A DNA stretch of 64,000 bases, from contig CAYPCX010000001.1 in NCBI GenBank assembly GCA_964409365.1, positions 312,699 through 376,698 on the forward strand, in the 5' to 3' direction. Under the pieces are notes generated by a model, which was not told the origin of the DNA, did not search any database, and saw nothing but the letters and a program-made list of their open reading frames with translations. Of the stretch, positions 5,545 through 37,972 are shown piece by piece. Position 1 is the first letter of the stretch; every line of letters starts with the position of its first letter. Position numbers and translations under genes: made by a program. The DNA is from an uncultured Planctomycetia bacterium (GTDB lineage: Bacteria > Omnitrophota > Gorgyraeia > Tantalellales > Tantalellaceae).

Positions 5545-5953
5545 GAAGAGAAATACGGGGAAGAAGGCGGGTTTCACAAAAAAAGAGCTCCAGGATGTAC
5601 GCAAGAAACTTGTCCAGGAGAAAGCCAAGATCCTCGAGGAACTCATGAAAATAAAGGGCGAGTCCCTGAACAAGTCCTTTAAAGACGCTTCAGGCGACCT
5701 TTCCGGTTATACGTTCCACATGGCCGACATGGCTACCGACCTCTACGACAGAGAGTTTTCCCTGGAACTGGCGGAAGGGGAAAGGGAGAGGCTTTACGCC
5801 CTTGACGAGGCGATAAAGCGCATCGATGAAGGCACGTACGGCAAGTGTGATTCCTGCGGCGGGAAAGTGTCCAAACAGCGCCTTAAGGTCATGCCGCAGG
5901 CAAAGTATTGTATCGAATGTCAGGAAAAAGAGGAAAAATCCGCAGGCAAGTAA
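5534..5953 (+). CDS. DksA/TraR family C4-type zinc finger protein
   Basis: 139 aa, coiled-coil N-term then CDSCGGKVS...CIECQ C4 finger; overlaps ileS stop by 11 nt. Confidence 0.7.
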   Translation: MVNKKRNTGKKAGFTKKELQDVRKKLVQEKAKILEELMKIKGESLNKSFKDASGDLSGYTFHMADMATDLYDREFSLELAEGERERLYALDEAIKRIDEGTYGKCDSCGGKVSKQRLKVMPQAKYCIECQEKEEKSAGK

Positions 5954-6477
5954 CGTTCGCATATTCGGCCGTTATCCTTGTCTATATTCTTGACCAGGCG
6001 TCTAAATTTCTCGCCAGCAGGCTGCTTTCCCCGGGGGAAAGCGTCCCGGTGATAAAGAACCTCCTACACATGACGCTTGTCTATAATACCGGCGCGGCCT
6101 TCGGGATGTTCAGTTCCCACCCTTATTTTTTTGTGGCGGTAGCCGTCCTTTCGGTCTTTTTGATCAATTATCTTTTCATACGCAAGGGGCATAAGCTCAT
6201 GGCCTTGGAAGGCGTGGCGCTCGGATTCATTCTCGCGGGGACTCTGGGGAACCTTACCGACCGCCTCCGCGTCGGGTACGTCATAGATTTTATAGATCTC
6301 AGGGTGTGGCCTGTGTTCAATCTCGCCGACAGCTTCATAACCATCGGTGCCGTGATGCTCGGGTGGTCCATCCTTTGGGGCGCCCGGGGACGTAAGACAG
6401 AGGACAGAGGACAGAAGACAGAAGGACGTAGATGCCAGGAGGATGTTAGATGTTGGTTGTTAGATGTTAGTTGTTAG
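5917..6477 (+). CDS. lspA: Lipoprotein signal peptidase (signal peptidase II); the C-terminal ~25 codons are read through heptamer-repeat DNA
   Basis: LDQASK, NTGAAFG, GNLTDR, FNLADS conserved blocks of peptidase A8; start uncertain (ATG 5908/5917 overlapping dksA-like gene). Confidence 0.8.
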   Translation: MSGKRGKIRRQVTFAYSAVILVYILDQASKFLASRLLSPGESVPVIKNLLHMTLVYNTGAAFGMFSSHPYFFVAVAVLSVFLINYLFIRKGHKLMALEGVALGFILAGTLGNLTDRLRVGYVIDFIDLRVWPVFNLADSFITIGAVMLGWSILWGARGRKTEDRGQKTEGRRCQEDVRCWLLDVSC

Positions 6478-6612
6478 TTTTTAGTCGTACAACTCATAAC
6501 TAACAATTCACAACTCAACACTTGATACTTGTCACTTTATCCTTTATCCTTGTTACTTGTCACTGTTCTCTGGTTACTGGAAACTGGTTACTGTTTACGA
6601 CAAGGCTCATAC
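6400..6612. repeat. Composite heptanucleotide tandem-repeat mosaic (GGACAGA, GATGTTA, TTGTTAG hairpin, CTTTATC, TACTGGT modules)
   Basis: Modules are shared, in the same order, with the copies at 11841-12225 and 15745-15975, and in inverted orientation with 42090-42295. Confidence 0.85.
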
Positions 6613-7347
6613 ATGCATCGAATTTTACTACAGATAGGTCCCGTCACCCTTTATTCCTACGGTTTGTTGGTGGCCACGGCTTTTCTTGTCTCCACGATAC
6701 TTATTCTCAGGGATTCGCGTAAGTTCGATATAGCGAGAGAAGACGTCTTTGATTGTCTTCTGGCCGTTCTGATAGGAGGAATAGTAGGAGGCAGGCTCCT
6801 TTTTGTTATACTGAACCGGGAGTATTATCTGGACCACCCTTTGAGGATAGTGATGCTCCAGGAAGGAGGGATGGCTTTTCACGGGGCGCTTGTCGCCGCT
6901 ATCCTGGTGGGGGCGGCCGTGTGCGCGATAAAGAAGGTCTCTTTCTGGAAGATGAGCGATCTGATGACCCCGTATATCGCTTTGGGGCACGCCATCGGCC
7001 GGATAGGGTGCCTCTTGAACGGTTGCTGTTACGGTAAGGTGATCCATTCCGGGTTAGGCCTGACATTCCCGGGTGAAGCCGTCATGCGTGTGCCCACGCA
7101 GTTCTATTCAAGCCTGTGCCTGCTTTTTATCTTCGTCGCCCTCATGGAATTCCGTGAAAGGCGTCCTTTCGACGGTTCCGTTCTGGCCCTTTATCTCGTT
7201 CTTTACGGGGTCTTCAGGTTTTTCATGGATTTCTTCCGGGGCGATAATCCTGCCGTTTATCACGGCCTCACGCTCGCGCAGATCATCAGCGTTTTCATGG
7301 TCCTCCTGGGGTTTGTATTGTACGCTTTGTTGAGGAAAAAATCATGA
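6613..7347 (+). CDS. lgt: Prolipoprotein diacylglyceryl transferase
   Basis: Lgt signature HAIGRIGCLLNGCCYGK, multi-TM; true start taken at ATG 6613 (MHRILL...) because the upstream part of the ORF is repeat-derived. Confidence 0.85.
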   Translation: MHRILLQIGPVTLYSYGLLVATAFLVSTILILRDSRKFDIAREDVFDCLLAVLIGGIVGGRLLFVILNREYYLDHPLRIVMLQEGGMAFHGALVAAILVGAAVCAIKKVSFWKMSDLMTPYIALGHAIGRIGCLLNGCCYGKVIHSGLGLTFPGEAVMRVPTQFYSSLCLLFIFVALMEFRERRPFDGSVLALYLVLYGVFRFFMDFFRGDNPAVYHGLTLAQIISVFMVLLGFVLYALLRKKS

Positions 7348-7383
7348 AAGGAATGTTAGAGAAGTGCTGAGCCGGGTCATGGG

Positions 7384-7533
7384 AAAGGGGAAAGTGTCCC
7401 GCGCGCAGTTCGGACATTTGAGAAGTTTTAACATTACAATGGAAAAGGCAAGAGTATCCCGTGCTCAAACAGTTTTTGCTTTGCAGCAGTGTCAACAGCA
7501 AAAAAACTGCGCGCGGGATATTCTTACCTTTTT
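7384..7533. repeat. ~95-nt long-hairpin intergenic element, copy A, plus an adjacent inverted half copy
   Basis: GGAAA.G..AGTATCCCGTGCTCAAACAGTTTTTGC-loop-CAGCAAAAAAACTGCGCGCGGGATA...CTTTTT; shared with copies at 28005, 53735, 62083, 63193. Confidence 0.8.
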
Positions 7534-7578
7534 CACAGCTCTGTCAAAGCCTCCCGGAAAAGTATTTTTTAGAAAAAC

Positions 7579-8484
7579 ATGAAAGAAATCAAGTTCACGA
7601 TAGACGCCGACGGCGCGGGAGTTCGCATCGATAAGTGCATCGCGGAGCGGCTGGGCGTGGATTATTCGCGCACGTACGTGAAAAACCTGATAAACAACGG
7701 TCATGTCCGCGTCAACGGTAAGGTCGAGAGGCCCAGTTACATTTCCAGGGAAGGGGATGATGTTCTGGTGGAGATGCCGCCCGCGGAAAAACACGACCTC
7801 CATCCGGAGGACATACCGCTCGAAATAATCTACGAGGACGAGTGCGTCATTATACTGAACAAACCTCCCGGCATGGTGGTCCATCCCGCGGCGGGGAACA
7901 GGACCGGTACGATGGTGAACGCGCTCCTTTTCCATTGCGGGAATCTCCCGGAAACGGATGACGAGCAGAGACCCGGCTTAGTGCACCGGCTTGACAAGGA
8001 CACCTCGGGTGTGATGGTCGTAGCCAAGACGGACCGCGCCCTTCGCTCGCTGGCGAAACAGTTCCAGAAGCGGGCTATCAAAAAAAGATACGTGGCGCTG
8101 GTCAAGGGACGCGTAGCGGCCGATAACGGCGTGGTCGAGGCCCCGGTGGCGAGACATCCCGTGGACCGTAAGAAGATGGACGTTGAACATGCCAGGGGAA
8201 AACCCGCGCGTACGGTCTACCACGTAAAACAAAGGTTCAGGGGCCTCACTTTTCTTGAGCTGGAACCGGAAACGGGACGCACGCACCAGATACGCGTGCA
8301 CATGAAGCATATCGGACATCCCGTTCTCGGGGATACGACGTATGGAAAGGCCGACGGCGCGGCAAGGCAGGCTCTTCACGCGGAGATGCTGGGGTTCACC
8401 CATCCCGATACCGGAAAATACGTAGAGTTCCACGCCCCGATGCCGGAGGACATGCAGGCGCTGATCAGGAAAGCGGAGGAGTAA
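7579..8484 (+). CDS. rluD: 23S rRNA pseudouridine synthase, RluA/RluD family
   Basis: S4 domain N-term, HRLDKDTSGVMVVAKT catalytic Asp motif, 301 aa. Confidence 0.85.
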   Translation: MKEIKFTIDADGAGVRIDKCIAERLGVDYSRTYVKNLINNGHVRVNGKVERPSYISREGDDVLVEMPPAEKHDLHPEDIPLEIIYEDECVIILNKPPGMVVHPAAGNRTGTMVNALLFHCGNLPETDDEQRPGLVHRLDKDTSGVMVVAKTDRALRSLAKQFQKRAIKKRYVALVKGRVAADNGVVEAPVARHPVDRKKMDVEHARGKPARTVYHVKQRFRGLTFLELEPETGRTHQIRVHMKHIGHPVLGDTTYGKADGAARQALHAEMLGFTHPDTGKYVEFHAPMPEDMQALIRKAEE

Positions 8485-8576
8485 AGTGTCACAGTGTCAT
8501 CGCTCACTTTGTTCACTAGTGTCATAGTGTCAAAAAAAATGCCCTGACACTTTGACACTCTGACACTTTGACACTA
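8485..8576. promoter_or_regulatory. Inverted tandem array: 4x GTGTCA followed by 4x TGACAC around an A8 tract, between rluD and aroA
   Basis: agtgtcacagtgtcat...gtgtcatagtgtcaaaaaaaatgccctgacactttgacactctgacactttgacact. Confidence 0.5.
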
Positions 8577-8600
8577 TCATATAGTTAAACAGGGGCACAA

Positions 8601-9887
8601 ATGGACTGGAAAATAAAGAAAGCTCAGAAAGGGTTGAAAGGCGAGCTCAGGGTCCCGCCCGATAAGAGCATCTCGCACAGGGCGGTCATGTTCTCCTCAA
8701 TAGCCAGGGGAAAATGCCGCATCGATAATTTTCTCTTCGGCGAGGACTGCATGCGCACTTATGAGGCGTTCCTTGCCATGGGCGTGAGTATCACCCGCAA
8801 ACATAACGCCGTGGTCGTCAAAGGGGACGGGCTCAAGGGGCTTAAAGCGCCCGCGGGAGCCCTGTACATGGGTAATTCCGGGACGTCAATGCGTATCATG
8901 TCCGGTATCCTTGCCGGTCAGGATTTCGCCACGGAACTGACCGGTGACGAGTCTCTTTCCAAGAGGCCGATGGGTCGGATAGTGGAACCGCTCAGGAGCA
9001 TGGGCGCGAATATAGAGACGGCCGGCGACGGCAGGCCGCCGATAAAGATCGCACCGGCGGGAGGGCCCCTGAAAGCGGTTACCTACAATACGCCCGTGGC
9101 GAGCGCGCAGGTGAAGTCGTGTGTTCTCAGCGCGGGCCTTTACGCCGATGGTACGACGGCTCTCACGGAACCGTTCCAGTCAAGGAACCATACCGAGAAG
9201 ATGCTGGAATATTTTTCCGCGGAGATCGAACGTGAAGGCCTGACGACAAGAGTGACCGGGGGAAAGGAGCTTGTCCCGAAGGACTTGAGCGTACCGGGTG
9301 ATGTATCAAGTGCGGCCTTCTTTATAGTGGGAGCGCTTCTGGTGGAAGGGTCGAACCTGGTGCTCAGAGGGGTCGGGCTGAACCCGACCCGGACGGGTCT
9401 TATATCCGTGCTCAAAAGGATGGGGGCGAAGATAGATATACTGGACCTGCGGGGTGAATCCGAACCTTCAGGAGACCTCAGGGCCCTTTATTCTCCTCTG
9501 GAGGGTACTATAGTCAAGCCGAGCGAGATACCCCTTTTAATAGACGAGATACCGGTCCTTATCATCGCGGCCGTGACCGCGTCGAGCCCTACGGAGATAC
9601 AGGGTATATCGGAACTCAGGGTCAAGGAGAGCGACAGGGTGCGCAGCATGACGGAGAACCTCTCGAAGCTGGGAGTGGAGATGATGGAGAAAGGGGATTC
9701 GCTGATAATCTATGGAGGGAAAAAGACCTTTACTTCAGCCGTCCTGGACAGTTTCGGGGACCACCGTATCGCGATGAGCATGGCGGTGGCCTCGCTTATA
9801 TCCGACGACGGGTGCACGATCAGGGATACGGACTGCGTGAACACCTCCTATCCGGATTTCCCGGGCCACCTGGCAAAGGTCAGCTGA
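8601..9887 (+). CDS. aroA: 3-phosphoshikimate 1-carboxyvinyltransferase (EPSP synthase)
   Basis: LRVPPDKSISHRAVMF and LYMGNSGTSMR motifs of EPSP synthase, 428 aa. Confidence 0.9.
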   Translation: MDWKIKKAQKGLKGELRVPPDKSISHRAVMFSSIARGKCRIDNFLFGEDCMRTYEAFLAMGVSITRKHNAVVVKGDGLKGLKAPAGALYMGNSGTSMRIMSGILAGQDFATELTGDESLSKRPMGRIVEPLRSMGANIETAGDGRPPIKIAPAGGPLKAVTYNTPVASAQVKSCVLSAGLYADGTTALTEPFQSRNHTEKMLEYFSAEIEREGLTTRVTGGKELVPKDLSVPGDVSSAAFFIVGALLVEGSNLVLRGVGLNPTRTGLISVLKRMGAKIDILDLRGESEPSGDLRALYSPLEGTIVKPSEIPLLIDEIPVLIIAAVTASSPTEIQGISELRVKESDRVRSMTENLSKLGVEMMEKGDSLIIYGGKKTFTSAVLDSFGDHRIAMSMAVASLISDDGCTIRDTDCVNTSYPDFPGHLAKVS

Positions 9888-9912
9888 GAGAAGTGCTTGC
9901 CTAAAATAAGGT

Positions 9913-9941
9913 TTGACAAAGTATTTGTTATTTGCTAACAT
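9913..9941 (+). promoter_or_regulatory. Candidate sigma70-type promoter of the mreBCD-mrdA-rodA operon (TTGACA-17-TAACAT; a second perfect TATAAT at about 9959)
   Basis: Hexamers read directly from the sequence 45-75 nt upstream of mreB ATG. Confidence 0.45.
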
Positions 9942-9988
9942 TTTTACGGATTTAATAATATAATCTACACCCACCAATAATAGGAAAT

Positions 9989-11047
9989 ATGCTAAACACC
10001 ATTTCGAAATATTTTGATGGCATAATCGGCATGTTCTCGACCGATATGGGCATCGACCTCGGAACCGCTTCAACCCTTGTTTACCTCAAGAACGAAGGTA
10101 TAGTTCTCTGCGAACCTTCCGTCGTTGCTATCGAGGCCGGTACGAATAACGTCCTGGCGGTGGGGGAAGAGGCAAAACGCATGCTCGGCAGGACCCCCGG
10201 CAACATAGTCGCGATAAGGCCTATGAAGGACGGCGTTATCGCGGATTTCGAGATAACCGAAAGCATGCTCAGGTATTTCATCAAGAAAGTGCACAATTCA
10301 CGCCGTCTCGTCCGGCCGAGAGTGGTGGTCGCCATACCTTCGGGTATTACCGAGGTGGAGAAACGCGCGGTCAAGGATTCCGCGCTCCACGCCGGCGCCA
10401 GGGAAGTATACATGCTCGAGGAGCCGGTAGCGGCTTCCATCGGGGTGGGGCTCCCCATCCAGGAACCCTCCGGCAACATGATAATCGACATCGGCGGCGG
10501 CACGACCGAGATGGCCGTCATATCTCTCGCGGGTGTCGTATTCTCGAAGTCTATCCGTATCGGCGGGGATGAGCTGGACGACGCTATCATCAACTATCTT
10601 AAGAGGACTTACAACCTCATGGTAGGTGAAAGGACCGCCGAGGAGATCAAGATAAGGATAGGGTCCGCTTACCCGATGGACGATGAACTGACCATGGACG
10701 TGAGGGGGCGTGATCTCGTGGCGGGCCTTCCCAAAATGATCACCGTTACCAGCGAAGAGATCAGGGAAGCCCTGTCCGAGCCGATCGCCCAGATAATCGA
10801 GGCGGTGAGGATAACCCTTGAGAGGACGCCGCCGGAACTTTCCGCGGACCTTATTGAAAAAGGGTTGATACTCGCCGGCGGAGGAGCTCTTCTCAGGGGG
10901 CTGGATAAGCTTATCGCTGAAGAGACGGGTCTGCCGGTGCACCTTGCGGACGACCCGCTTACGGCGGTCGTTCTGGGTACGGGCAAGGTGCTCAGCGAGT
11001 TAAGGTACTTAAAGAGACTGACCGTAGCCCCGAGACTTCAAAAATAA
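9989..11047 (+). CDS. mreB: Rod shape-determining protein MreB
   Basis: Actin-fold ATPase, [12 protein letters not shown] and DIGGGTTE phosphate motifs. Confidence 0.95.
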
Positions 11048-11063
11048 GTAAAGACTATTCGAT

Positions 11064-11840
11064 GTGCCTAAACTTCTTAATAGGAAAAGAACCTGGTTTT
11101 TCATATCTTTCTTTTTAGCTGTCATCTTCCTTTTTGTCATATTCCCTTCATTTTTTTCCGGCGTCAGGACCGTCACTCTCAGGACCCTTTCGGCACCCGC
11201 GAGACTTTTCGTCTCTATCCGTGAAGGTTGCGTTACCAGGCGGCGGCTCCGGAGCGAGAACAGGGCGCTGAGAAAGGATCTCGCGGACCTTTCTCTTAAG
11301 ATCGAAGGCCTCAAGGACCTCCGGGACGAGAACGAGCGCCTCAGGGAACTCCTCAACTTCAGGAAAAAGATACAATACGACGTGGTCTCGGCCGAGGTCA
11401 TCGCGAGGAACCCTAACGACTGGATCGGGTCGTTCGTCATCGACAGGGGTGCGGCCGACGGCGTAAAGAAAGATTCCGCTGTCTGCACCGCCAAGGGGCT
11501 GCTCGGGAAGGTGACGGGGGCCGATGCCGAGACAAGTTCCGTGATGATGATCATCCACCCGGGATTCAAGGCCGGGGGAATGATCAAAGGCACCGGGGTG
11601 AACGGGATAGTGGTCGGTTCCGGGAAGGGGACTCTCAGGATGCTTTATATTCCCGTCGACGCCGACGTGGGAAAGGGTGACGTCGTCGTGACGTCGGGGT
11701 TCAGCAGGATATTTCCCAGAGGGATACCCATCGGCGAGGTGGTCTCTGTCGGAAGGAGCAGGACCGGTTTGTACAAATACGCGGTCATCAGGCCTTCCGC
11801 GAACCTTTTCGAACAGGAAGAGGTTCTTTGTATCAAGTGA
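11064..11840 (+). CDS. mreC: Rod shape-determining protein MreC
   Basis: Single N-terminal TM, coiled coil (ENRALRKDLADL...LRELLNF), beta-rich C-term; position between mreB and mreD. Confidence 0.8.
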   Translation: MPKLLNRKRTWFFISFFLAVIFLFVIFPSFFSGVRTVTLRTLSAPARLFVSIREGCVTRRRLRSENRALRKDLADLSLKIEGLKDLRDENERLRELLNFRKKIQYDVVSAEVIARNPNDWIGSFVIDRGAADGVKKDSAVCTAKGLLGKVTGADAETSSVMMIIHPGFKAGGMIKGTGVNGIVVGSGKGTLRMLYIPVDADVGKGDVVVTSGFSRIFPRGIPIGEVVSVGRSRTGLYKYAVIRPSANLFEQEEVLCIK

Positions 11841-12225
11841 ATTTCAGGTCTCAGGTTGCAGGTCTCAGGAAACAGATGACAGAGGACAGAAGGACAGAGG
11901 ACAGAGGACAGAAGGACAGAGGACAGAGGACAGAGGACAGAAGGACGTAGATGCCAGGAGGATGTTAGATGTTGGATGTTAGATCTTTGATCGCAAAGAG
12001 CTAAGCGCGTAGAGCAAAGAATCACAGTTTTACGCTGTACGCTATGCCCTTTGCGCTATGCTTTTTTCACTTGTCACTTTATCCTTTATCCTTGTCACTT
12101 GTCACTGTTTACTGGCTACTGGTTACTGGTTACTGTTTACTGGTTACTGGTTACTGTTTACTGGCTACTGGTTACTGGTTACTGGCTACTGGTTACTGGT
12201 TACTCTGACACTATGACACTTACGC
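11841..12225. repeat. Composite heptanucleotide tandem-repeat mosaic (longest copy: about 10x GGACAGA, GATGTTA module, about 12x TACTGGT)
   Basis: Same module order as 6400-6612 and 15745-15975; ends with the TGACAC motif immediately before mreD. Confidence 0.85.
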
Positions 12226-12699
12226 ATGAAACAACGTATCGCACTATATGCATTGCTGGTGGTCTGTGTCCTGGTCCAGGTGATATTGATGCGGGATGCC
12301 GCCTGGTTCCCGGACATCATACTTATCATGGTCGTTTTTACCGGTATCTTCAGGGGCGGGACCGAGGCCCTTGCTTTGGGCATCGTGGCAGGTCTTTTGA
12401 GAGGGAGTTTTTCGGTGGGGACGCTCCCTCTGGATATTCTTATTTTTCCGCTGGTGGGCGTGATGTCCGCGGCCCTTGCTAGGATGTTCTACCGGCAGAA
12501 CCCGGCTATCCAGGTGTTGATCACCTCCGCCGCTCTCGCTGCTGTCGTGGCGGCGCACACGCTTTATCTTAACGTGGTAAGCGGCAACGACGTCGCGCTG
12601 TCATTCGTTTTCATGAACAGCCTGTGGACGCTGGCGCTGACGGTCATCCTCTCGCCGCTTATTTTCCTCATGCTTCGTCCTTTGTGGTCGGAGAACTAA
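12226..12699 (+). CDS. mreD: Rod shape-determining protein MreD
   Basis: 157 aa polytopic membrane protein directly between mreC and mrdA. Confidence 0.65.
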   Translation: MKQRIALYALLVVCVLVQVILMRDAAWFPDIILIMVVFTGIFRGGTEALALGIVAGLLRGSFSVGTLPLDILIFPLVGVMSAALARMFYRQNPAIQVLITSAALAAVVAAHTLYLNVVSGNDVALSFVFMNSLWTLALTVILSPLIFLMLRPLWSEN

Positions 12700-12702
12700 A
12701 TA

Positions 12703-14421
12703 ATGAGAACTAAAACATTAAGTTTTATATTCGTATTTTGCCTGGGGTTCCTACTTTTGGGGCTCTTTTTCACTCAGGTGATCCGGCACGAACGATACAG
12801 GGTCATGTCCGAGGAGAACAGGCTGAAGATAATCCCTCTTATGGCCCCGAGAGGTAGCATATACGACAGAAACGGCAAAGCCCTGGTGAAAGACGTCCTG
12901 AGTTTCGACGTCGCGGTCATCTATAGCCGCATAAAGGATAAGACCGCGCTGGCAGACATGCTGAGCTCCGAGCTGGAAATACCCGCGGAGACGATAACCC
13001 GGGAGATCGGGAAAGCCCGGAGGCAGCCGTTCACCCCTACCGTCGTAGCCTCCAATGTCGGTATAGGAAAGGCCATACAACTGGAAGAGTTGAGCGCGGA
13101 TTATCCCGGACTTCACCTGGATGTTTCGGCGAGACGGGAATATCTGCGCGGGGAGACCGCTTCGAACGTCCTTGGTTATCTCGGGATGATAAACAGGTCC
13201 GAGTTCGACAGGCTCAAGCATTACGGGTACAGTATAAGGGATCTTGTCGGCAGGGCGGGCCTCGAGAGAACGTACGATAATTATCTCAGAGGGCGCCACG
13301 GCGGAAAACAGGTCGAGGTGGACCATCGCGGACGCGAGATGACGACGCTGGGATTGAAAGAGCCAAGCTCCGGCAGGGACGTCAGACTTACGCTTGACCT
13401 TGAGTTGCAGGAATATTGTGACGGCCTTCTCAAGAACAAGAAGGGCGCTATTCTTGCCATGGATCCGGATACCGGCGCGATGATAGCCATGTCCAGCGCC
13501 CCGGGTTATGACCCCGGTGTTTTTGTGGACAGGGCCAGAAGCGTCGAAACGGTAGAGCTTCTGAATGATAATGAATATCCTCTAGTGAACAGGGCGATAA
13601 CGGGTGTGTATCCGCCCGGTTCGGTGTTCAAAGTGGTAGTAGCTTCCGGGGCGGTCGAGACCGCGAAGGCGGGAGAACATACGACCTTTGCCTGTTCCGG
13701 CGTCTTCACTCTCGGCAGGGCGACGTTCCACTGCTGGAGGGAAGGGGGGCACGGTCTCCTGGCCCTCAAGGACGCGATCAAGAATTCATGCAACGTTTAT
13801 TTCTTCCAGCTCGGGCTCCTGCTGGGCGCGGACGGCATCGCGGAGTTCGCCAGGAGGTTCGGTTTCGGAAGTCATACCGGCATCGACCTTCCGGGAGAGG
13901 CTCCCGGCACTGTACCCGACCCTGAATGGAAGGAGGAACGTTTCAATGACAAGTGGTATAAGGGGGATACCGTCAACTATTCCATCGGACAGGGGTATAT
14001 GCTGTGCACCCCTATCCAGGTAGCGAGGATGATGGCCGTTTTCGCGAACGACGGATTTATAGTAAGGCCGTACATAGTGAACAGGATAGGGAGCCTCGAT
14101 ACGGTAAGCGGTGAAAAGATCGAAGTGGATATCTCAGGTGATACGCTGAAGACCGTAAAGGAAGGCATGTGGAGGGTCGTGAACTCTCCCAGGGGCACGG
14201 GGATGAAAGCCAGGCTTCGCAACGTAGAGGTCGCCGGGAAGACCGGCACGGCGCAGACATCCCGGGGAAAGAACCACGGGTGGTTCGCGGGGTTCGCTCC
14301 TTACGACGATCCGAAGCTCGTTGTCGTCATTTTTGACGAATACGGCGGGAAAGGCGGATACTACGCCGCGCAGACGGCGGGGAAGGTGTTCAAAAAAGCC
14401 GATGAACTGGGACTATTGTAG
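12703..14421 (+). CDS. mrdA: Penicillin-binding protein 2 (peptidoglycan D,D-transpeptidase)
   Basis: N-terminal TM, PBP dimerisation domain, SxxK (GSVFKVV), SxN (NSCN) and KTG(T) motifs. Confidence 0.9.
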   Translation: MRTKTLSFIFVFCLGFLLLGLFFTQVIRHERYRVMSEENRLKIIPLMAPRGSIYDRNGKALVKDVLSFDVAVIYSRIKDKTALADMLSSELEIPAETITREIGKARRQPFTPTVVASNVGIGKAIQLEELSADYPGLHLDVSARREYLRGETASNVLGYLGMINRSEFDRLKHYGYSIRDLVGRAGLERTYDNYLRGRHGGKQVEVDHRGREMTTLGLKEPSSGRDVRLTLDLELQEYCDGLLKNKKGAILAMDPDTGAMIAMSSAPGYDPGVFVDRARSVETVELLNDNEYPLVNRAITGVYPPGSVFKVVVASGAVETAKAGEHTTFACSGVFTLGRATFHCWREGGHGLLALKDAIKNSCNVYFFQLGLLLGADGIAEFARRFGFGSHTGIDLPGEAPGTVPDPEWKEERFNDKWYKGDTVNYSIGQGYMLCTPIQVARMMAVFANDGFIVRPYIVNRIGSLDTVSGEKIEVDISGDTLKTVKEGMWRVVNSPRGTGMKARLRNVEVAGKTGTAQTSRGKNHGWFAGFAPYDDPKLVVVIFDEYGGKGGYYAAQTAGKVFKKADELGLL

Positions 14422-14424
14422 AGA

Positions 14425-14640
14425 GTCACAAGTTGCAAGTCACAAGTATCAAGTTACAAGTTGCAAGTCACAAGTCACAAGTTACAAGTTACAAGTCACA
14501 AGTCACAAGTTACAAGTCACAAGGAAAAAGGATAAAGTGTCGAATAACCCGTTTCCCGTAACCGGTTTCCAGATAGCTCTGGTCACTGGTTACTCAATAC
14601 TCGACACTCAATACTCAATACTTAATTTGCGAATGGGAGT
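14425..14640. repeat. Heptanucleotide tandem-repeat mosaic, CACAAGT/TACAAGT array (about 13 units) with inverted versions of the CTTTATC and TACTGGT modules
   Basis: Direct reading; reverse-complement relationship to modules in the 6400 and 11841 copies. Confidence 0.8.
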
Positions 14641-14643
14641 TAC

Positions 14644-15741
14644 ATGTTTTTCGCAAAAAGAGGGCATATAGACAAGATATTGCTCGCGACGGTGCTTGCG
14701 ATAGGGTTGCTCGGCGTGCTTTTTGTATACAGCGCCACCTGGGACAAGAATGCCAGCGGGCCGGGGCTGAACACTATCGTCGTGAAGCAGGCCATGGCGG
14801 TCATGATCGGCCTGGTGGTCCTTCTTTTCATAGCGAACATGGATTACAGGCGGATGAGGGACCTGGGGTATTTCCTTTACGTGGTCAACCTCGCGGCCCT
14901 TGTGTTCCTTCTCATTTTCGGCGGTGAACGTTACGGCGCGAGGCGGTGGATAAACCTGGGATTCTTTTCCCTGCAGCCGTCCGAGTTCGTGAAACTTACC
15001 ATGATCCTCGCGCTGGGGGCTTTTCTCAGCGACAGACGCGAGAAAATAGGCGGTTTCGGCAATTTCTTTTTCGCGCTGGTCCTTGCCATGCCGGCCTTTG
15101 CGCTGATATTCCTGCAGCCGGACCTGGGGACAGCGCTCGTCCTTCTACCGATACTTTTTTCCATACTGTTCGTCTGCGGCGAAAGGAAAAGATATCTGGC
15201 CGCCTGTGTGGGGCTGGGGGTAGCCGCTCTTCCGGTCCTTTGGAGCCTGCTGAAGGATTACCAGAAGACGCGGCTCATGGTCTTCATAAATCCCAATCTG
15301 GACCCGCTGGGCGCGGGGTACACGATAATACAGTCCAAGATAGCCATCGGTTCCGGCGGATGGTTCGGCAAGGGATGGCTCAACGGGACGCAGAGTTATC
15401 TGAAATTCCTCCCCGAGCGGCACTCCGATTTCATCTTTTCAGTGGTGGGGGAAGAATGGGGCTTTGCAGGGGCGCTTGTCATCATAGCGCTCTATGTGCT
15501 TTTTATAAGCAGGGGCCTGAGGATAGCCGCGAACACGGATGATGTCTTCGGAAAGGCGGTGGCTGTCGGGGTCGTGACGTTGCTGGCTTTCCAGGTATTC
15601 GTCAACATCTCCATGACGATAGGTTTTATGCCTGTCGTAGGCTTGCCCCTTCCCGCGATCAGTTACGGGGGATCTTCCACCCTGGCGACATTCATCGGAG
15701 CGGGGCTTTTGCTCAGCATCGGGCGGAAAGCGGCCAGATAA
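14644..15741 (+). CDS. rodA: Rod shape-determining protein RodA (SEDS family peptidoglycan polymerase)
   Basis: FtsW/RodA/SpoVE family: 10 TM, conserved GGW.GKG and PE.H.DFIF blocks. Confidence 0.9.
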   Translation: MFFAKRGHIDKILLATVLAIGLLGVLFVYSATWDKNASGPGLNTIVVKQAMAVMIGLVVLLFIANMDYRRMRDLGYFLYVVNLAALVFLLIFGGERYGARRWINLGFFSLQPSEFVKLTMILALGAFLSDRREKIGGFGNFFFALVLAMPAFALIFLQPDLGTALVLLPILFSILFVCGERKRYLAACVGLGVAALPVLWSLLKDYQKTRLMVFINPNLDPLGAGYTIIQSKIAIGSGGWFGKGWLNGTQSYLKFLPERHSDFIFSVVGEEWGFAGALVIIALYVLFISRGLRIAANTDDVFGKAVAVGVVTLLAFQVFVNISMTIGFMPVVGLPLPAISYGGSSTLATFIGAGLLLSIGRKAAR

Positions 15742-15744
15742 ACA

Positions 15745-15975
<231 letters not shown>

Positions 15976-15978
15976 GTT

Positions 15979-17718
15979 ATGGATGACTTGAGGCAAATTC
16001 TCAGCAAAGTGCAGAAACCCGGGCGCTATATCGGCGGCGAAACGAACTGTGTCCGCAAAAAATTCACACAGGACAGGATTTCCGTCGCTCTGGCATATCC
16101 CGATACGTACGAGGTCGGGATGAGCTACCTGGGACTGCGGATACTGTACCATCTTCTTAACGAGCGAGACGACATAGTCTGCGAGCGCGTGTTCGCCCCC
16201 TGGCCGGACATGGAACAAGAGCTCAGGGGGAACGGCCGTAGACTTTTCAGTCTTGAGTCGAAGACGGATATCCACAGGTTCGATATCGTGGGGTTCTCTC
16301 TTTCCTACGAGCTGACCTACACTAACGTTCTCAATATGCTGGACCTTTCGGGGATAACCGTAGAGGCCGCCAAAAGAGGGGATGACGAACCTCTCGTCAT
16401 AGCCGGAGGCGCGTGCTGCTGTAACCCGGAACCCATGAGCGCCTTCATAGACGCTTTTTTGATAGGCGACGCGGAAGAAGCGCTTCCGGGGTTTATTGAC
16501 GCCTACCGTGAGCTGAAACGCGGCTCGGTCGACAGAAAAAGCACGTTGAAACGCCTCGCACGTCTGGGCGGCGTATATGTTCCGCGTCTTTATTCCGCGC
16601 GGTATGAGGGTGATAAGTTCCTCGGCCTCGCGCCCGAAGATGACGGGGTGCCGCCGGTGGTCAAAAAGAATTCCGTGGCCGATCTTGAAAAGGCGTATTA
16701 TCCGGTCAAGCAGATCGTGCCGCTGGTCAAGATAGTCCACGACAGGATAGCGGTAGAGATAATGAGGGGGTGCCCCAACGGGTGCCGGTTCTGCCAGGCG
16801 GGCAACATAAATAAACCGGTGAGGCTCAGGAGCCCGGGACGTATCCGCGAGATATGCCGCGAGACTTACGCCGCCACGGGATACGAACGTATCGCGCTTC
16901 TCTCGCTTTCCAGCGTCAATTACCCGTATCTTCCGGAACTGGTCGAAGGGCTGAACGCGGACCTCGGGGACAAGGGAGTAGGGGTCTCCATACCGTCACT
17001 GCGCGTGGACGAAGCGTTCTACGCCCTGCCGGGGATATTGTCCGCTGTAAGGAAAGCGGGCCTTACTTTCGCCCCGGAGGCCGCGGGTGAGGGAATGAGA
17101 AGGTCCATAGGCAAGGACATAAAGACCGAAGTGCTCGAGAGGTCCGTCCGGCTCGCTTACGGCCACGGGTGGAGGAGGGTCAAACTGTATTTTATGGTAG
17201 GGTTTCCGGGGGACATGGATGAAGAGGCGAAAAAAATACTGGTCCTGTCAAGGGATATATCCCGCCTGAAAAGGGAAGTGTCGGGCGGCGCGGCCGAAGT
17301 GAAAGTGAGCGTCAATTCGTTCGTTCCCAAAGCGCATACCCCGTTCCAGTGGCTTGGCATGAGGCCGGCGGAGGGACTTTTGCGCGCGAGGAACATACTG
17401 CGTTCGGGTTCCACGAAGAAGGTCACGGTCGATTTTCATGATGTGGACAGGTCGATGCTTGAAGCCTGCCTGGCTAAGGGTGACCGCGCTCTCGCGGGCG
17501 TGATATACGCGGCCTGGAAGAAAGGGGCCAAGATGGACGGCTGGCAGGACCTTTTCGATCTTGCCGCGTGGGAAGGTTCTTTCCGGGAAAAAGGCCTTGA
17601 TATCCGGTCTTACGCTTTGAAAGCGTCCGCCCTCGACGACGTATTGCCGTGGTCGCACATAAAGGCCGGCATGGACGAAAAAAACTTGAAGGAAGAGTTT
17701 ATAAATAGCGAGTTGTAA
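15979..17718 (+). CDS. B12-binding-domain radical SAM protein, TIGR03960-like
   Basis: N-terminal QKPGRYIGGE hallmark, CxxxCxxC (CPNGCRFC) radical-SAM cluster; start placed at MDDLRQ downstream of the repeat. Confidence 0.7.
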   Translation: MDDLRQILSKVQKPGRYIGGETNCVRKKFTQDRISVALAYPDTYEVGMSYLGLRILYHLLNERDDIVCERVFAPWPDMEQELRGNGRRLFSLESKTDIHRFDIVGFSLSYELTYTNVLNMLDLSGITVEAAKRGDDEPLVIAGGACCCNPEPMSAFIDAFLIGDAEEALPGFIDAYRELKRGSVDRKSTLKRLARLGGVYVPRLYSARYEGDKFLGLAPEDDGVPPVVKKNSVADLEKAYYPVKQIVPLVKIVHDRIAVEIMRGCPNGCRFCQAGNINKPVRLRSPGRIREICRETYAATGYERIALLSLSSVNYPYLPELVEGLNADLGDKGVGVSIPSLRVDEAFYALPGILSAVRKAGLTFAPEAAGEGMRRSIGKDIKTEVLERSVRLAYGHGWRRVKLYFMVGFPGDMDEEAKKILVLSRDISRLKREVSGGAAEVKVSVNSFVPKAHTPFQWLGMRPAEGLLRARNILRSGSTKKVTVDFHDVDRSMLEACLAKGDRALAGVIYAAWKKGAKMDGWQDLFDLAAWEGSFREKGLDIRSYALKASALDDVLPWSHIKAGMDEKNLKEEFINSEL

Positions 17719-17770
17719 TCTTAAAACCTGAGACCTGAGACCTGAGACCTGGAACCTGTGGCCTGATTTT
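17719..17770. repeat. CCTGAGA heptamer tandem repeat (about 5 units)
   Basis: cttaaaacctgagacctgagacctgagacctggaacctgtggcctga; the same motif recurs at 32980-33012. Confidence 0.8.
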
Positions 17771-17859
17771 GACAATTCAAAATAGTTAGTGTATTATTAT
17801 TTATCAGTCAGATGTGAGATAATATAATTGGATTTTTCCATAATACCTGGAGGTTACTC

Positions 17860-19269
17860 ATGGGTGTCATTCAATCCCTTTCCGTGGGCCGCAAAAGCTT
17901 GAAGTATAAGATAATGATAGCTTTTTCGCTGATGTCCATCATCCCGCTTCTGGTAGTCGTCTATTTTGTGACCAATTACGTCTTCCCTTACACTAAGAAC
18001 ATGACGCAGGTCAGCATCATCGTGCTGTTCACGCTGTGGATATCCTGGCTGGGATATCTCTTGATAAGACAGATAATCAACCCGGTGATAGACCTCGCCT
18101 TCGAGACCAAGATCATAGCCGAAGGAAAATACGGCTCGAAAGTGGCGCTTTCCACCGAGGACGAGCTGGGGGATATAGCGGAAGCCGTTAACGCGATGAC
18201 CGGGAAGATCCGATGCTATATAGGCGAGCTCCAGGATTACAGCAAAAAGACGGCGGCCCTGAACGTGCGCATACACAAGAAGGTGATCACGCTCACCAAC
18301 CTTATGCGGCTCGGTGACCTCATAAGCACCGGCACGGGGTTCGATGAGGTGATCAGTTTCGCGGCGGAGAAGATAGCAGAGGAGGTGGAGCAGGGTTTCT
18401 GCGCTATCTTCGTGAAGGAGAAGACCGGCGGTTTCGCCCTGAAGTCCTTCGCCAACAATACCGGAAAGGAATTTTCGAGCGCGCACCTCGAATCCACTGT
18501 CATATCCCTTGAGAGGATACTCATGCGGGACGAACACGTCATGGTGGATTCGCGTCCGCTGTCAAAGCCCTGGCAAAAACAGCTCCGGGAAAAGATGGGG
18601 CACGTCAACGCGCTCTTCTTCGGCATGAAGTCCACCAACAAGATGGTCGGGGCCATGGTGATGGGTAATTTCTCGGAAGATATGGAGTTCGAGGACGAAG
18701 AGATCGGTGTGGTCAGGGCTTTCGAGCGCGAACTGGTCCTCGGTTTCCAGAGCAGCCAGGTGTTCGAGAGGATCAAGAGCCTGGAGGTCGTGGACAGCCT
18801 TACGGGTCTCTATACCCGCGTGTACCTTGAGGACCGCCTCGAAGACGAGATCAACAGGGCCATATTCTACCAGAGGCCGTGCTCGCTGATACTTATCAAG
18901 GTCGACGATTTTGAGAAATATTCGGGCCACTACGGCGTGCCCAAGGCCAAGCACGTCCTGAGGCAGCTGGCGCAGCTTCTCGGCGGGGTCATGTCGCCGG
19001 TCGGGAAGGTCGCCCGTTTTGAGTACGACGAGTTCGCCATGCTGCTTCCCGAAAAGAACAAGCGCGAAACGATAGAAGTGGGCGAAGATATCCGCAAGCG
19101 TATCGAGGCGATGGAGCTTTCCAGCGATCCCTATGACAAGATAACGGTGAGCATCGGCGTGGGGGAGAACCCCATAGACGGGACTAACGCGAAAGAGATA
19201 ATAGCCAGGGCCTATTACAACATGGAAAAGGCCAAAAGCCTGGGAGCGAACAGGGTCGTAGGGGAATAG
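17860..19269 (+). CDS. Membrane-anchored HAMP-GAF-GGDEF-like protein with a degenerate active site (EYDEF instead of GG[DE]EF)
   Basis: N-terminal TM helices, HAMP-like segment, GAF-like region, C-terminal GGDEF fold (DSLTGLYTR...RFEYDEF...SIGV) lacking GG and lacking an RxxD I-site. Confidence 0.7.
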   Translation: MGVIQSLSVGRKSLKYKIMIAFSLMSIIPLLVVVYFVTNYVFPYTKNMTQVSIIVLFTLWISWLGYLLIRQIINPVIDLAFETKIIAEGKYGSKVALSTEDELGDIAEAVNAMTGKIRCYIGELQDYSKKTAALNVRIHKKVITLTNLMRLGDLISTGTGFDEVISFAAEKIAEEVEQGFCAIFVKEKTGGFALKSFANNTGKEFSSAHLESTVISLERILMRDEHVMVDSRPLSKPWQKQLREKMGHVNALFFGMKSTNKMVGAMVMGNFSEDMEFEDEEIGVVRAFERELVLGFQSSQVFERIKSLEVVDSLTGLYTRVYLEDRLEDEINRAIFYQRPCSLILIKVDDFEKYSGHYGVPKAKHVLRQLAQLLGGVMSPVGKVARFEYDEFAMLLPEKNKRETIEVGEDIRKRIEAMELSSDPYDKITVSIGVGENPIDGTNAKEIIARAYYNMEKAKSLGANRVVGE

Positions 19270-19292: not shown

Positions 19293-20360
19293 ATGGATGC
19301 GAAGATAAAGAAAATACTGGTCGACATGCCCCAAAAATGCGCGTCCGATCTTCACATAAGCGCGGATTCGCCTATCCATTACAGGATAAACAACGATCTG
19401 GTGGCGGTGGACGAGCAGGTGCTCACACCCGATGAGGCCAGGAAGGTCATATACAGCCTTATGACCGATCATCAGGTGCGGAAGTTCGAGGAAGAAAAAG
19501 AGCTGGACTTTTCCTTTTCCATCGCCGGGGTGGGCCGGTACAGGGCTAACGCTTTCATTCAACGGAACAGTCTCGGTTGTTCCATCAGGATGATACCGCT
19601 CAGGATCATGAGCATCAAGGAATGCGGCCTTCCCGTAGACATAGTTAAAGGTTTCTGTAACGCCAATAAAGGACTGGTGCTTGTAACCGGCGCTACCGGC
19701 AGCGGGAAATCCACCACGCTCGCCGCGATGGTGGAGGAGATAAACCAGACCCGGAAATGCCATATCGTGACCGTGGAAGACCCCATCGAATTCATCCACG
19801 ATAATAAGCAAGCCATCGTCGACCAGAGACAGGTGTTCGAGGACACGAATTCTTTCAACAACGCGCTCAGGCACGTGCTGAGACAGGATCCCGACGTCAT
19901 ACTTATAGGCGAGCTGCGCGACCTTGACAGCATACGGGAGGCCCTGGTCATAGCCGATACCGGCCATCTTGTGCTGGGAACGCTTCATACCTCGGACAGC
20001 ATACAGACCATAAACAGGCTGGTGGACATATTCCCGCCCTACCAGCAGAACCAGATAAGGTTCCAGCTTTCTTTCATCCTGCTGGGTATCGTAGCGCAGC
20101 AGCTCATACCCCGCAAGGATAAGTCCGGCATGGTGCTCGCCACCGAGGTCTTGGTATCCACCCCGGCCATAAGGAGCATGATCAGGGAGAGCAAGGAGCA
20201 CCAGATATATTCCATACTGCAGACGTCCCAGAAGTACGGCATGCGCACGATGAACCAGTCGCTGGCCGATCTTTACATGCAGGGAAAGATAAGCTATGAG
20301 CATGCTATATCGCGGTCTTCGAACACGGAAGAGCTGGAAAAACTTATAGAGAAGGGATGA
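19293..20360 (+). CDS. pilT: Type IV pilus retraction ATPase PilT
   Basis: 355 aa, Walker A GATGSGKSTTLAAM, PilT-type Asp/His boxes, AIRSMIRE motif. Confidence 0.9.
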   Translation: MDAKIKKILVDMPQKCASDLHISADSPIHYRINNDLVAVDEQVLTPDEARKVIYSLMTDHQVRKFEEEKELDFSFSIAGVGRYRANAFIQRNSLGCSIRMIPLRIMSIKECGLPVDIVKGFCNANKGLVLVTGATGSGKSTTLAAMVEEINQTRKCHIVTVEDPIEFIHDNKQAIVDQRQVFEDTNSFNNALRHVLRQDPDVILIGELRDLDSIREALVIADTGHLVLGTLHTSDSIQTINRLVDIFPPYQQNQIRFQLSFILLGIVAQQLIPRKDKSGMVLATEVLVSTPAIRSMIRESKEHQIYSILQTSQKYGMRTMNQSLADLYMQGKISYEHAISRSSNTEELEKLIEKG

Positions 20361-20366
20361 TGAAGA

Positions 20367-20813
20367 GTGGGTCCTGAAAAACGGATAGCGAAAAAACTAG
20401 GCGAGATCCTCGTAAACAACGCGGCTATCACCGAGGAACAGCTGCAGCGGGCGCTGGATTTCCAGAGGAGGGAAGGGGGCCTTCTGGGGGAGATCCTGGT
20501 CAAGCTCGGATATATAGGCGAGCGGGAGATAGTCCAGGCGCTGACCACCCAGTACGGGTTCCCGTTCGTCCTGCTGGAAAGCTTTGACTTCAACCAGGAA
20601 GCGGGGAAGCTGGTACCCGAGAACGTGGCGAGGCAGTACAGCCTGGTCCCGCTCGATATCATAGGGGAGCTCTTGACCGTGGCCATGTCAAACCCCCTCA
20701 ACGAAGCGGCCATCGACGACCTCGAAATGATAACAAAAAAAAAGGTGCAGGTCTTTATCAGCACTTTTACGTCCATACACGAAGGTATCAACAGGCTTTA
20801 TCAAAAGAAGTAA
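20367..20813 (+). CDS. Standalone GspE/PilB N-terminal (MshEN-type) domain protein, putative c-di-GMP receptor
   Basis: 148 aa; two tandem matches to the MshEN c-di-GMP-binding motif (KLGEILVNNAAITEEQLQRALDFQ and LLGEILVKLGYIGEREIVQALTTQ). Confidence 0.6.
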   Translation: MGPEKRIAKKLGEILVNNAAITEEQLQRALDFQRREGGLLGEILVKLGYIGEREIVQALTTQYGFPFVLLESFDFNQEAGKLVPENVARQYSLVPLDIIGELLTVAMSNPLNEAAIDDLEMITKKKVQVFISTFTSIHEGINRLYQKK

Positions 20814-20821
20814 TTTAAAAT

Positions 20822-24252: not shown

Positions 24253-24259
24253 TAACGAT

Positions 24260-25480: not shown

Positions 25481-25656
25481 AATCCATTCGAAGATCGCTG
25501 TAAGACGTTAAGGATCATAATAGTGTGAAATGGAAATTAAAGACTTTTACAAAGCTGAGCAAGAATTTGCATTTACTGGTCCTCAAATGTATACTTGAAC
25601 TAGAGGATATTGTTGAAGTGTATCCTCAATACGCTCTTTGAAAGGAGGTGAGAACG

Positions 25657-26001: not shown

Positions 26002-26027
26002 TAATTACGGCATTTCAAGCGTGAGAA

Positions 26028-26065
26028 AAAAGGAGGGTGGATCATCCACTCTCCTTTTTTTTTAA
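26028..26065 (+). terminator. Rho-independent terminator after the pilin gene (bidirectional-looking: A-run, GC stem, T-run)
   Basis: aaaaaaggagggtggatcatccactctccttttttttt: 10-bp stem with one mismatch, followed by T9. Confidence 0.8.
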
Positions 26066-37960: not shown

Positions 37961-37972
37961 GGAAAAGAAGGT

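Follow-up and report, generated by a model that had tools for sequence, protein, structure and literature searches.

The genome of a member of Candidatus Omnitrophota carries tandem heptanucleotide arrays of the kind known as short tandemly repeated repetitive (STRR) sequences or long simple sequence repeats (SSRs). Within a 64,000-nucleotide stretch of this genome (contig CAYPCX010000001.1 of assembly GCA_964409365.1, positions 312,699 to 376,698, forward strand; here called the window), several arrays of different units follow one another, for the most part in a single 7-nt register, and together make up a composite element of about 200 to 385 nt. The composite is present in at least four homologous copies, which lie in either orientation and occupy intercistronic spacers; most sister species have short spacers at these sites. 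One copy makes up the entire spacer between mreC and mreD (11841 to 12225), to which a preliminary description of the window had drawn attention. On present evidence, we do not regard the arrays as a new kind of element: they belong to a class of heptanucleotide repeats that is already known, found here in a new phylum and organized as a mosaic; no report of heptamer repeats in Omnitrophota was found in the literature.

Heptamer arrays and the dispersed composite element

Tandem Repeats Finder (TRF) detected 30 period-7 arrays in the window, whereas 30 dinucleotide-preserving shuffles of the window, used as the chance model, gave a mean of 1.2 and a maximum of 4. The enrichment check proposed by the preliminary description thus came out clearly for the window. 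Period-7 arrays cover 1195 bp, and any other period that is not a multiple of 7 covers at most 165 bp. Autocorrelation of intergenic DNA peaked at lags 7, 14, and 21 (0.413, 0.39, and 0.37, respectively), other lags being at about 0.26; coding DNA had a 3-nt period only, and the lag-7 signal was absent from it. Apart from a few arrays that overlap gene ends, the period-7 signal is a property of non-coding DNA, so that two marks of heptanucleotide long SSRs, head-to-tail 7-nt units beyond chance and concentration in non-coding DNA, were found. The feature is real and statistically overwhelming.

All arrays listed in the preliminary description were recovered by TRF, although its phrase "7-nt periodicity throughout" was too broad: the period is strong between genes, but lag 7 was the best lag in only 11 of the 29 spacers of at least 25 nt, the remaining spacers having no such signal, and some arrays (TGACACT at 8485 to 8575, 12202 to 12220, and 1737 to 1769) have a period of 8. 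Several of the spacers lacking the lag-7 signal have good promoter-like sites. The mosaics between genes of one operon are 40 to 385 nt long, and the longest heptamer array in the window has 14.4 units. No universal core was found among the heptamer units, CAG/CTG being modestly enriched (z of about 3) and GAA/TTC more so. Scans of the whole window returned no Rfam match at gathering score and no tRNA or transfer-messenger RNA. A coding reading of the spacers was rejected, since the period of 7 is not a multiple of 3, stops lie within GATGTTAG units, and relatives contain no homologous spacer sequence, their spacers being short or made of unrelated repeats. A G-quadruplex reading was also rejected, because the units lack G-runs and none contains GGG.

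The four copies of the composite are as follows.

6394 to 6600, + strand: copy 1, in the lspA-lgt spacer (TRF, alignment)
11841 to 12225, + strand: copy 2, the whole mreC-mreD spacer (lag-7 match fraction, 0.66)
15742 to 15975, + strand: copy 3, between rodA and a radical-SAM gene (BLAST, alignment, shared junctions)
42088 to 42290, - strand: copy 4, in the rplU-rpmA spacer, inverted relative to copies 1 to 3

A module order recurring among these spacers, once inverted, had been noticed before, and alignment not only bore this out but went beyond it: the four spacers are 87 to 97% identical by BLAST, can be placed in a four-way alignment with two shared junctions, and are copies of a dispersed composite, each of them quasi-palindromic. 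The modules follow in the order TCAGGTC, GACAGAG, a unique junction, GATGTTA/GTTGTTA, a loop, ACAACTC/ACTAACA, ACTTGTC/CCTTTAT, and ACTGGTT. Two non-repetitive stretches, ACGTAGATGCCAGGAGGATGTTAGAT and TTAGTCGTACAACTCATAAC, occur three times each, against 0 expected. Since unique junctions and module order are shared, the spacers constitute a dispersed repeat family and did not grow independently at each site. The copies differ by gain, loss, and replacement of modules and have no common defined termini. Copy 1 consists of about 30 units, which keep the same 7-nt register except for one slip of 1 nt, and in copy 2 the outer arrays are expanded and the center is different. Shorter fragments and single arrays occupy other spacers, and the elements reach from 0 to 3 nt past the upstream stop to 1 to 17 nt before the next start.

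Copy 2 extends from 3 nt past the mreC stop (at 11840) to 5 nt ahead of the mreD ATG (at 12226), and its modules are listed below.

11844 to 11869, + strand: TCAGGTC array, 3.7 units (TRF)
11872 to 11946, + strand: GGACAGA/GACAGAG array, 10.3 units, purine-rich (TRF)
11945 to 11970, + strand: unique non-repeat junction ACGTAGATGCCAGGAGGATGTTAGAT (3 matches, 0 expected)
11961 to 11984, + strand: GATGTTA array, 3.4 units (TRF)
11992 to 12055, no strand assigned: central inverted repeat specific to copy 2, with 27-nt arms that are 70% complementary
12067 to 12106, + strand: CACTTGT/CCTTTAT (TCACTTG/CCTTTAT) array, 5.7 units, pyrimidine-rich (TRF)
12104 to 12204, + strand: ACTGGTT/ACTGTTT/ACTGGCT array, 14.4 units (TRF), the only spot that differs between assemblies
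12202 to 12220, + strand: CTGACACT octamer, 2.4 units, directly 5' of the mreD ATG

The TCAGGTC module also opens the rodA-radical-SAM copy and occurs inverted (ACCTGAG type) at 17726, 32982, 37928, and 45912. Interspersed 8-nt units give the GGACAGA array higher-order periods of 22 and 29 nt. The junction ACGTAGATGCCAGGAGGATGTTAGAT recurs at 6426 to 6451 without mismatch and at 15813 to 15838 with one mismatch. The central 64-nt inverted repeat, whose arms consist of 7-nt units (AGAGCTA/AGCGCGT on one side and TACGCTG/TGCCCTT on the other), stands where the other copies have a GTTGTTAG/CTAACAAC hairpin; GCGCTATGCCC-type units of this center were also found in L019 and L065.

The window was compared with assemblies from ENA, JGI (two samples), and Logan, all of the same population. 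Over 1064 to 39937 and 52251 to 64000 these are 100% identical to the window, arrays included, except for one indel: the ACTGGTT array at 12104 to 12204 is shorter in the ENA contig, by exactly 49 nt (7 units). The missing segment lies between two identical 28-nt blocks, and apparent single-nucleotide differences near it are alignment artifacts within the repeat. Judging from the sequences, the deletion is consistent with what slippage or recombination would give. For the mreC-mreD spacer, a lookup of further assemblies returned the ENA version only, and one Logan contig ends within the GGACAGA array. Assembly artifact had been named in advance as a way in which the arrays might prove spurious; the four assemblies agree on the arrays that they cover, apart from the indel. 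We conclude that the arrays exist in the genome and are not grossly unstable.

Predicted hairpins, operon context, and related genomes

The composite is a quasi-palindrome with a G- and purine-rich 5' half and a C- and T-rich 3' half. The difference G - C in the four copies is +19 to +36 in the first half and -4 to -22 in the second, and the inverted rplU-rpmA copy is likewise G-rich first on the + strand. The GT-rich/AC-rich hairpins suggested by the preliminary description have a counterpart in a predicted 34-pair consensus helix between GTTGTTAG and CTAACAAC units; besides, GACAGAG units are predicted to pair with CUGUUCUCUG-type units via G-U pairs. Convergent inverted pairs like those of Xanthomonas are present in the window (6444/6489, 15848/15892, 42175/42207, and 40387 to 40455) and in the related genomes L004 and L005. 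Some examples of this design that are cleaner than the composite copies are predicted to fold very strongly. In L004, the mreD-mrdA spacer contains five GTAGTTC units and then five GAACTAC units (z of -8.2/-9.2), and the inverted arrays between rodA and the radical-SAM gene of L005 have a fold z of -5.9.

Scanning JGI metagenomes for three tandem GACAGAG units showed such arrays in more than 119 contigs with a GC content of 38 to 72%, usually bearing other heptamer arrays as well; no strain variant of the window species was among 119 contigs of the scan. In these 119 contigs and the window together, 37 of 181 neighboring array pairs are inverted and 12 are direct. Of 39 GACAGAG-like pairs, 37 have the G-rich arm first, as do 15 of 20 pairs of other motifs, a total of 52 G-first against 7 C-first. 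That this chirality reflects avoidance of Rho loading is speculation on our part, and as a strict rule it is disfavored because the mrdA-rodA spacer has a 100-nt unpaired array richer in C than in G (CAAGTCA). GACAGAG was also considered as a special, horizontally spreading unit, and this was rejected: control units of the same composition form arrays in viral contigs too (10 and 17 matches for the controls and 30 for GACAGAG), so that the wide occurrence of GACAGAG is no evidence of transfer. This supports the view that heptamer mosaics are a general phenomenon rather than the property of one special motif. Four IMG/VR contigs classed as viral (L152, L167, L195, and L201) carry heptamer arrays, among them convergent inverted pairs 30 to 70 nt apart.

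Pfam identified lspA, lgt, aroA, mreB, mreC, mreD, the PBP2 gene mrdA, rodA, the radical-SAM gene, a GGDEF gene, the genes for L21 and L27, obg, proB, proA, and nadD, and all Pfam-confirmed genes lie on the + strand. Good promoter-like sites were seen 5' of aroA, mreB, and the GGDEF gene, and the array-bearing spacers have only weak 9/12 promoter-like matches inside. From these weak matches and the conserved + strand order, an intra-operon, transcribed location of the arrays is a reasonable inference. The flanking genes named in the preliminary description proved right, and the cotranscription that it took for granted can reasonably be supposed from them. Weak 9/12 promoter-like matches, on both strands, also fall in the ACTTGAT/ACTTGTC/CCTTTAT module (6522 to 6563, 12076 to 12105, and 15916 to 15944), and the region from 5500 to 18500 has 26 promoter-like matches against 8.3 expected. 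The element may contain an outward-reading promoter.

Comparison of PBP2 places the host in Candidatus Omnitrophota and not among the cyanobacteria. Its closest PBP2 relatives, which include Ca. Makaraimicrobium thalassicum, are 59 to 65% identical, and seven related genomes have the same succession of genes between ileS and the type IV pilus genes. Spacer lengths at four junctions compare as follows, negative values included.

mreC-mreD: 385 nt here; -4 to 34 nt in five relatives and 142 nt in L004
rodA-radical-SAM gene: 237 nt here; -1 to 9 nt in three relatives
mrdA-rodA: 222 nt here; -13 to 92 nt in relatives
lspA-lgt: 135 nt here; -20 to 73 nt in four of the five relatives that gave a usable value

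Array junctions thus measure 135 to 385 nt here and mostly about -20 to 100 nt in relatives, with three exceptions (142 to 322 nt), two of which have arrays of their own. Three relatives (L003, L006, and L007) have no heptamer arrays, mostly short spacers, and an unchanged operon, which means that the elements are dispensable. Arrays are present in four others (L004, L005, L019, and L022), mostly composed of different units and located in part at other junctions. The rodA-radical-SAM junction is hit in the window, L005, and L019, and the mrdA-rodA junction in the window, L004, and L022. In L005, two spacers are 79% identical, non-array sequence included. The AGTGTCA octamer and CAGAAG-type units are common to the window and L019, and ACTGGTT is shared with L121. 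Two of the metagenome-assembled genomes, L007 and L022, are labeled "uncultured Planctomycetia bacterium"; they have the full gene order of the Omnitrophota genomes and 62% PBP2 identity to them. The labels look doubtful.

Known repeat classes and possible explanations

Heptanucleotide repeats have been known since 1990, and the canonical STRR units are CCCCAGT, TTGGTCA, and CAACAGT. A repetitive extragenic palindromic (REP) unit is an imperfect palindrome of about 35 nt; such units are mobilized by REP-associated tyrosine transposases (RAYTs) and are not known to have a 7-nt period. Eukaryotic foldback elements have inverted arms made of short tandem repeats.

In most prokaryotic genomes, heptamers are reported to be the most abundant class of long SSRs, for which a polymerase-footprint or slippage hypothesis has been advanced (Mrazek 2007, as reported in PMC4679880 and PMC4692102). 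Their over-representation has been documented in cyanobacteria, Xanthomonas, Beggiatoaceae, and others (PMC4692102, PMC4679880), and Calothrix and Nostoc have several tandem heptamer families, the STRR sequences (Mazel et al. 1990, as cited in PMC4692102). The likening of the arrays to STRRs in the preliminary description was apt as an analogy: tandem 7-nt units, several families per genome, and many dispersed intergenic positions, some of them within operons (such as pecE-pecF in Nostoc, PMC4692102), are common to both. The host here, however, belongs to Omnitrophota, and the units are not the STRR ones, ACTGGTT and ACTGTTT being only loosely like the reverse complements of two of them. In the window, families are concatenated in a fixed order into a dispersed composite, which may set it apart from STRRs.

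About 185 GGGAATC arrays are known in Xanthomonas. They are intergenic, vary in length, and are for the most part transcribed, and the 70 to 75 convergent inverted pairs among them could form stem-loops (Rehm et al. 2015, PMC4692102). These arrays and the Nostoc GGGGAYT arrays resemble those of the window in being intergenic (2 to 26 units there) and in forming convergent inverted pairs with the G-rich arm first; the Xanthomonas arrays are transcribed and vary in length between related strains while keeping their position (PMC4692102). The difference is that Xanthomonas has one G-rich family with G-quadruplex potential, whereas the window has many families in a mosaic, and no G-quadruplex is expected from units that lack G-runs. 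The TAACTGA arrays of marine Beggiatoaceae, which also occur in some cyanobacteria and in Bacteroidetes, lie directly 5' of start codons, and translational control has been proposed for those of Beggiatoaceae (MacGregor 2015, PMC4679880). They are likewise intergenic heptamers, often directly 5' of starts lacking a canonical ribosome-binding site, ribosomal-protein operons included, but a single motif is involved there, with 2 to 6 copies per set and 169 direct sets versus 1 indirect (PMC4679880), whereas the window has many motifs, longer arrays, and frequent inverted pairs.

The best functional analogy is with the REPs and bacterial interspersed mosaic elements (BIMEs) of enterobacteria, which are mosaic, palindromic, dispersed, intra-operon, transcribed, and hairpin-forming. 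The intercistronic location and the dispersal are present here, and a hairpin is predicted; the units are, however, 7-nt direct repeats and not palindromes of about 35 nt with a GTAG-type head, and whereas REPs are mobilized by RAYTs, no IS200/IS605-like (RAYT) gene was found among the annotated products of the window and its flanks.

We consider it probable, without being firmly convinced, that the arrays are slippage-driven elements, dispersed by recombination and transcribed as intercistronic hairpins, which mainly propagate themselves and are tolerated. Arrays would gain or lose whole units by slipped-strand mispairing or by recombination between identical unit blocks; we infer growth and shrinkage by whole units because the lone difference between assemblies is exactly 7 units. 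The composite would spread by copying at the DNA level, through ectopic recombination, gene conversion, or some transposition, and would be retained only where a junction tolerates the loss of tight coupling. Once transcribed within the polycistronic mRNA, the elements might fold into long imperfect hairpins that uncouple neighboring cistrons, and they could work like REP/BIME stem-loops or those of segmental RNA processing and stabilization (SRPS), that is, as exonuclease barriers or RNase sites. GACAGAG arrays abutting start codons (29290 and 60358) may supply Shine-Dalgarno-like motifs. A mostly passenger role seems to us the likeliest, since the arrays are missing from three sister species that have the same operon.

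Several observations weigh against this explanation. The 49-nt difference, seen in a comparison of assemblies, could be an assembler collapse. A length difference of the kind that the preliminary description had expected from slippage was seen at that one site, but the remaining arrays, of which about 25 were compared, are identical across assemblies and are thus not hypermutable on this timescale. The predicted folding is modest, with whole-spacer z values of +0.5 to -5.4 for the composite copies, and the rodA-radical-SAM copy folds no better than its shuffles. No compensatory changes in the helix were found among the three alignable copies, a comparison of low power, and the count of G-U versus A-C pairs in sense and antisense copies gave 5, 3, and 3 G-U pairs. 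Terminal inverted repeats and target-site duplications, sought at the four copies by eye and by repeat search, were not seen, and no transposase was found in the window or about 10 kb beyond. Furthermore, AGTGTCA octamer, CAGAAG, and GCGCTATGCCC-type units occur in species at only about 60% PBP2 identity, and neutral turnover explains such motif sharing with distant species no better than conserved function or horizontal spread does.

Selection for the hairpins as operon punctuation is, in our judgment, rather unlikely. Here, cis-acting RNA hairpins would set the stability and processing of mRNA segments in the manner of REP/BIME or SRPS stem-loops, the latter being an established mechanism (PMC4423207), and would avoid Rho-dependent polarity; the G-rich arm would be transcribed first, and the C-rich arm would pair while emerging. 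Elements do lie between cistrons needing unequal amounts of product (mreB-mreC-mreD/PBP2/RodA and L21/L27), the same junctions (rodA-radical-SAM and mrdA-rodA) have been struck repeatedly across species, and some motif families are common to distant species. The G-first chirality described above points the same way, the Xanthomonas pairs being likewise convergent (PMC4692102). Sense folds are more stable than antisense ones in four of the five large spacers, but z-scores do not favor the sense strand and covariation is lacking. The operon runs without heptamer arrays in L003, L006, and L007, the CAAGTCA array of mrdA-rodA resembles a Rho loading site more than a shield, and the repeated junctions are explicable by tolerance of insertions.

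It is improbable that the composite is a non-autonomous transposable element, similar to a miniature inverted-repeat transposable element (MITE) or a foldback element and mobilized in trans by a transposase encoded elsewhere. Like such elements, it is non-coding, dispersed, and equipped with inverted arms; homologous copies occur in both orientations at unrelated junctions, species-specific families occupy different junctions, and inverted arrays flank a central region. The copies lack clean ends, however, and vary by gain, loss, or replacement of modules instead of keeping defined termini. A search for transposon signatures turned up only the internal inverted repeat at 11992 to 12055 and, apart from the internal arrays, no terminal inverted repeats, and neither target-site duplications nor a partner transposase was found, as stated above.

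Slightly more doubtful still is the idea that the arrays serve translational control, being bound by the ribosome or by a protein with affinity for single-stranded RNA (S1, cold-shock proteins, CsrA, or anti-Shine-Dalgarno pairing), as proposed for Beggiatoaceae (PMC4679880). GACAGAG arrays end 1 to 6 nt before the starts at 29290 and 60358 and offer an AGAGGA/GAGG motif every 7 nt, and they are in sense orientation at about 3:1 in the metagenome contigs, according to crude open reading frame (ORF) calls. No Shine-Dalgarno sequence is visible upstream of mreD and the radical-SAM gene, lgt has only a weak AAGG, and pyrimidine-rich arrays directly precede all three genes. Against one sequence-specific binder, at least nine unrelated units share the 7-nt period; besides, families occur in both mRNA orientations without a universal core, and much of an array would be base-paired.

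Independent microsatellite growth at each junction, or an assembly artifact, is largely refuted and scarcely credible: heptamers are reported to be the most slippage-prone class of long SSRs (Mrazek 2007, as given in PMC4679880), short-read assemblers handle repeats poorly, and a Logan contig breaks off inside the GGACAGA array, but shared unique junctions and module order cannot arise independently, and the arrays are identical in four independent assemblies.

We also entertain, as a long shot, that heptamer-array foldback elements are a widespread, undescribed, self-spreading intercistronic class in uncultivated bacteria (Omnitrophota and many others, GC 38 to 72%). The G-rich arm would then always lie 5' on either strand, and this strict chirality, like the 7-nt register, would be imposed by a specific mechanism, for example avoidance of Rho loading together with register-keeping replication or repair, and they would punctuate operons to set the expression ratios of neighbors.

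The locus adds a phylum to those with heptamer repeats and makes a good comparative system, the natural comparison being the essential mreBCD-mrdA-rodA operon in sisters that have no arrays or have other motifs at other junctions. It shows that heptamer arrays can be joined in a composite and that copies of this composite can then arise elsewhere in the genome. The G-rich-arm-first rule for inverted heptamer pairs, known from Xanthomonas, is also found to hold more widely.

Other array-bearing sites and neighboring genes

Further arrays in the window are listed below.

8485 to 8575, no strand assigned: octamer AGTGTCA/TGACACT inverted arrays, 4 + 4 units, in the rluD-aroA spacer (hairpin predicted)
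14424 to 14626, + strand: mrdA-rodA spacer with CAAGTCA/CAAGTTA (14.3 units) and TACTCAA (5.1 units); lag-7 value, 0.67
17726 to 17766, + strand: ACCTGAG array, 5.9 units, past the radical-SAM gene, then a promoter-like site at 17769 to 17797
29254 to 29283, + strand: GGACAGA array, 4.3 units, most of the 48-nt spacer between pilM and the next gene (TRF)
32921 to 33011, no strand assigned: GGTGTAA array and ACCTGAN array, partly complementary, downstream of the secretin gene
33376 to 33460, no strand assigned: AGTAAAC/AGTAACC array, 4.3 units (33376 to 33405), then its inverted partner CTGGTTACTGG; overlaps the end of the DUF2344 gene
40387 to 40455, no strand assigned: AACCAGT (3.3 units), an A-rich loop, and CTGGTAAC/GGGTTAC/TGGTTAC, a small inverted-array hairpin
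45912 to 45956, + strand: AAACCTG/AAACTTG array, 5 to 6 units (AAACYTG, 5.1 units at 45912 to 45947), in the proA-nadD spacer (TRF)
60300 to 60356, + strand: RCAGAGG array, 8.1 units, fills the 43-nt spacer completely and stops 1 nt short of the tsaD ATG

The octamer arrays at 8485 to 8575 have a predicted hairpin with a z of about -6 on both strands, and their last units (8552 to 8580) provide the TTGACA of an 11/12 sigma-70-like promoter match just 5' of aroA; the AGTGTCA/TGACACT family has 18 exact copies against 3.9 expected. In the mrdA-rodA spacer, TRF reports the first array as CACAAGT, 14.3 units at 14424 to 14523, and its CAAGTCA/CAAGTTA units are the reverse complement of the ACTTGTG-type module. 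TRF also found eight CAGAAGR units at 15757 to 15812. A GAGG-type Shine-Dalgarno-like motif of the array at 29254 to 29283 stands 6 nt before the ATG, and the array at 60300 to 60356 overlaps the end of the upstream polysaccharide-deacetylase gene.

The lspA frame extends 27 codons into the heptamer arrays (6396 to 6477; its tail ends in RKTEDRGQKTEGRRCQEDVRCWLLDVSC and a stop), and relatives align only up to about residue 170 of 189. Gain or loss of units would thus alter the LspA C terminus. Array spacers account for over-long ORF calls such as this tail and the upstream-extended lgt and radical-SAM ORFs, as well as for contig breaks in short-read assemblies.

At 19293 to 32820 lies a complete type IV pilus cluster, comprising genes for a pilT-like ATPase, an MshEN protein, two pilB-like ATPases, pilC, a pilin, a TPR protein, pilM, an unannotated 215-residue protein in the pilN position, pilO, a pilP-like protein, and a secretin; the DUF2344 gene and an RNase E/G gene come after it. 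Two consecutive ORFs of 763 and 419 codons at 35580 to 39127, downstream of a pilin-like gene, have no Pfam match. The adjacent paralogous genes at 39124 to 40326 and 40488 to 41654 (400 and 388 residues) are about 76% identical over 730 nt and have at most a weak bactofilin match, with the inverted AACCAGT/CTGGTTAC array hairpin between them. The Mfd-like protein encoded at 48870 to 50762, with UvrB-interaction, CarD/TRCF RID, and helicase domains, has 630 residues, about half the usual size of Mfd. Essentially all real genes of the window are on the + strand. Every 2-kb bin has a positive GC skew, and the cumulative skew therefore climbs monotonically. Many genes have long antisense shadow ORFs, such as those at 48849 to 50780 (643 residues, opposite mfd) and 58169 to 59548 (459 residues).

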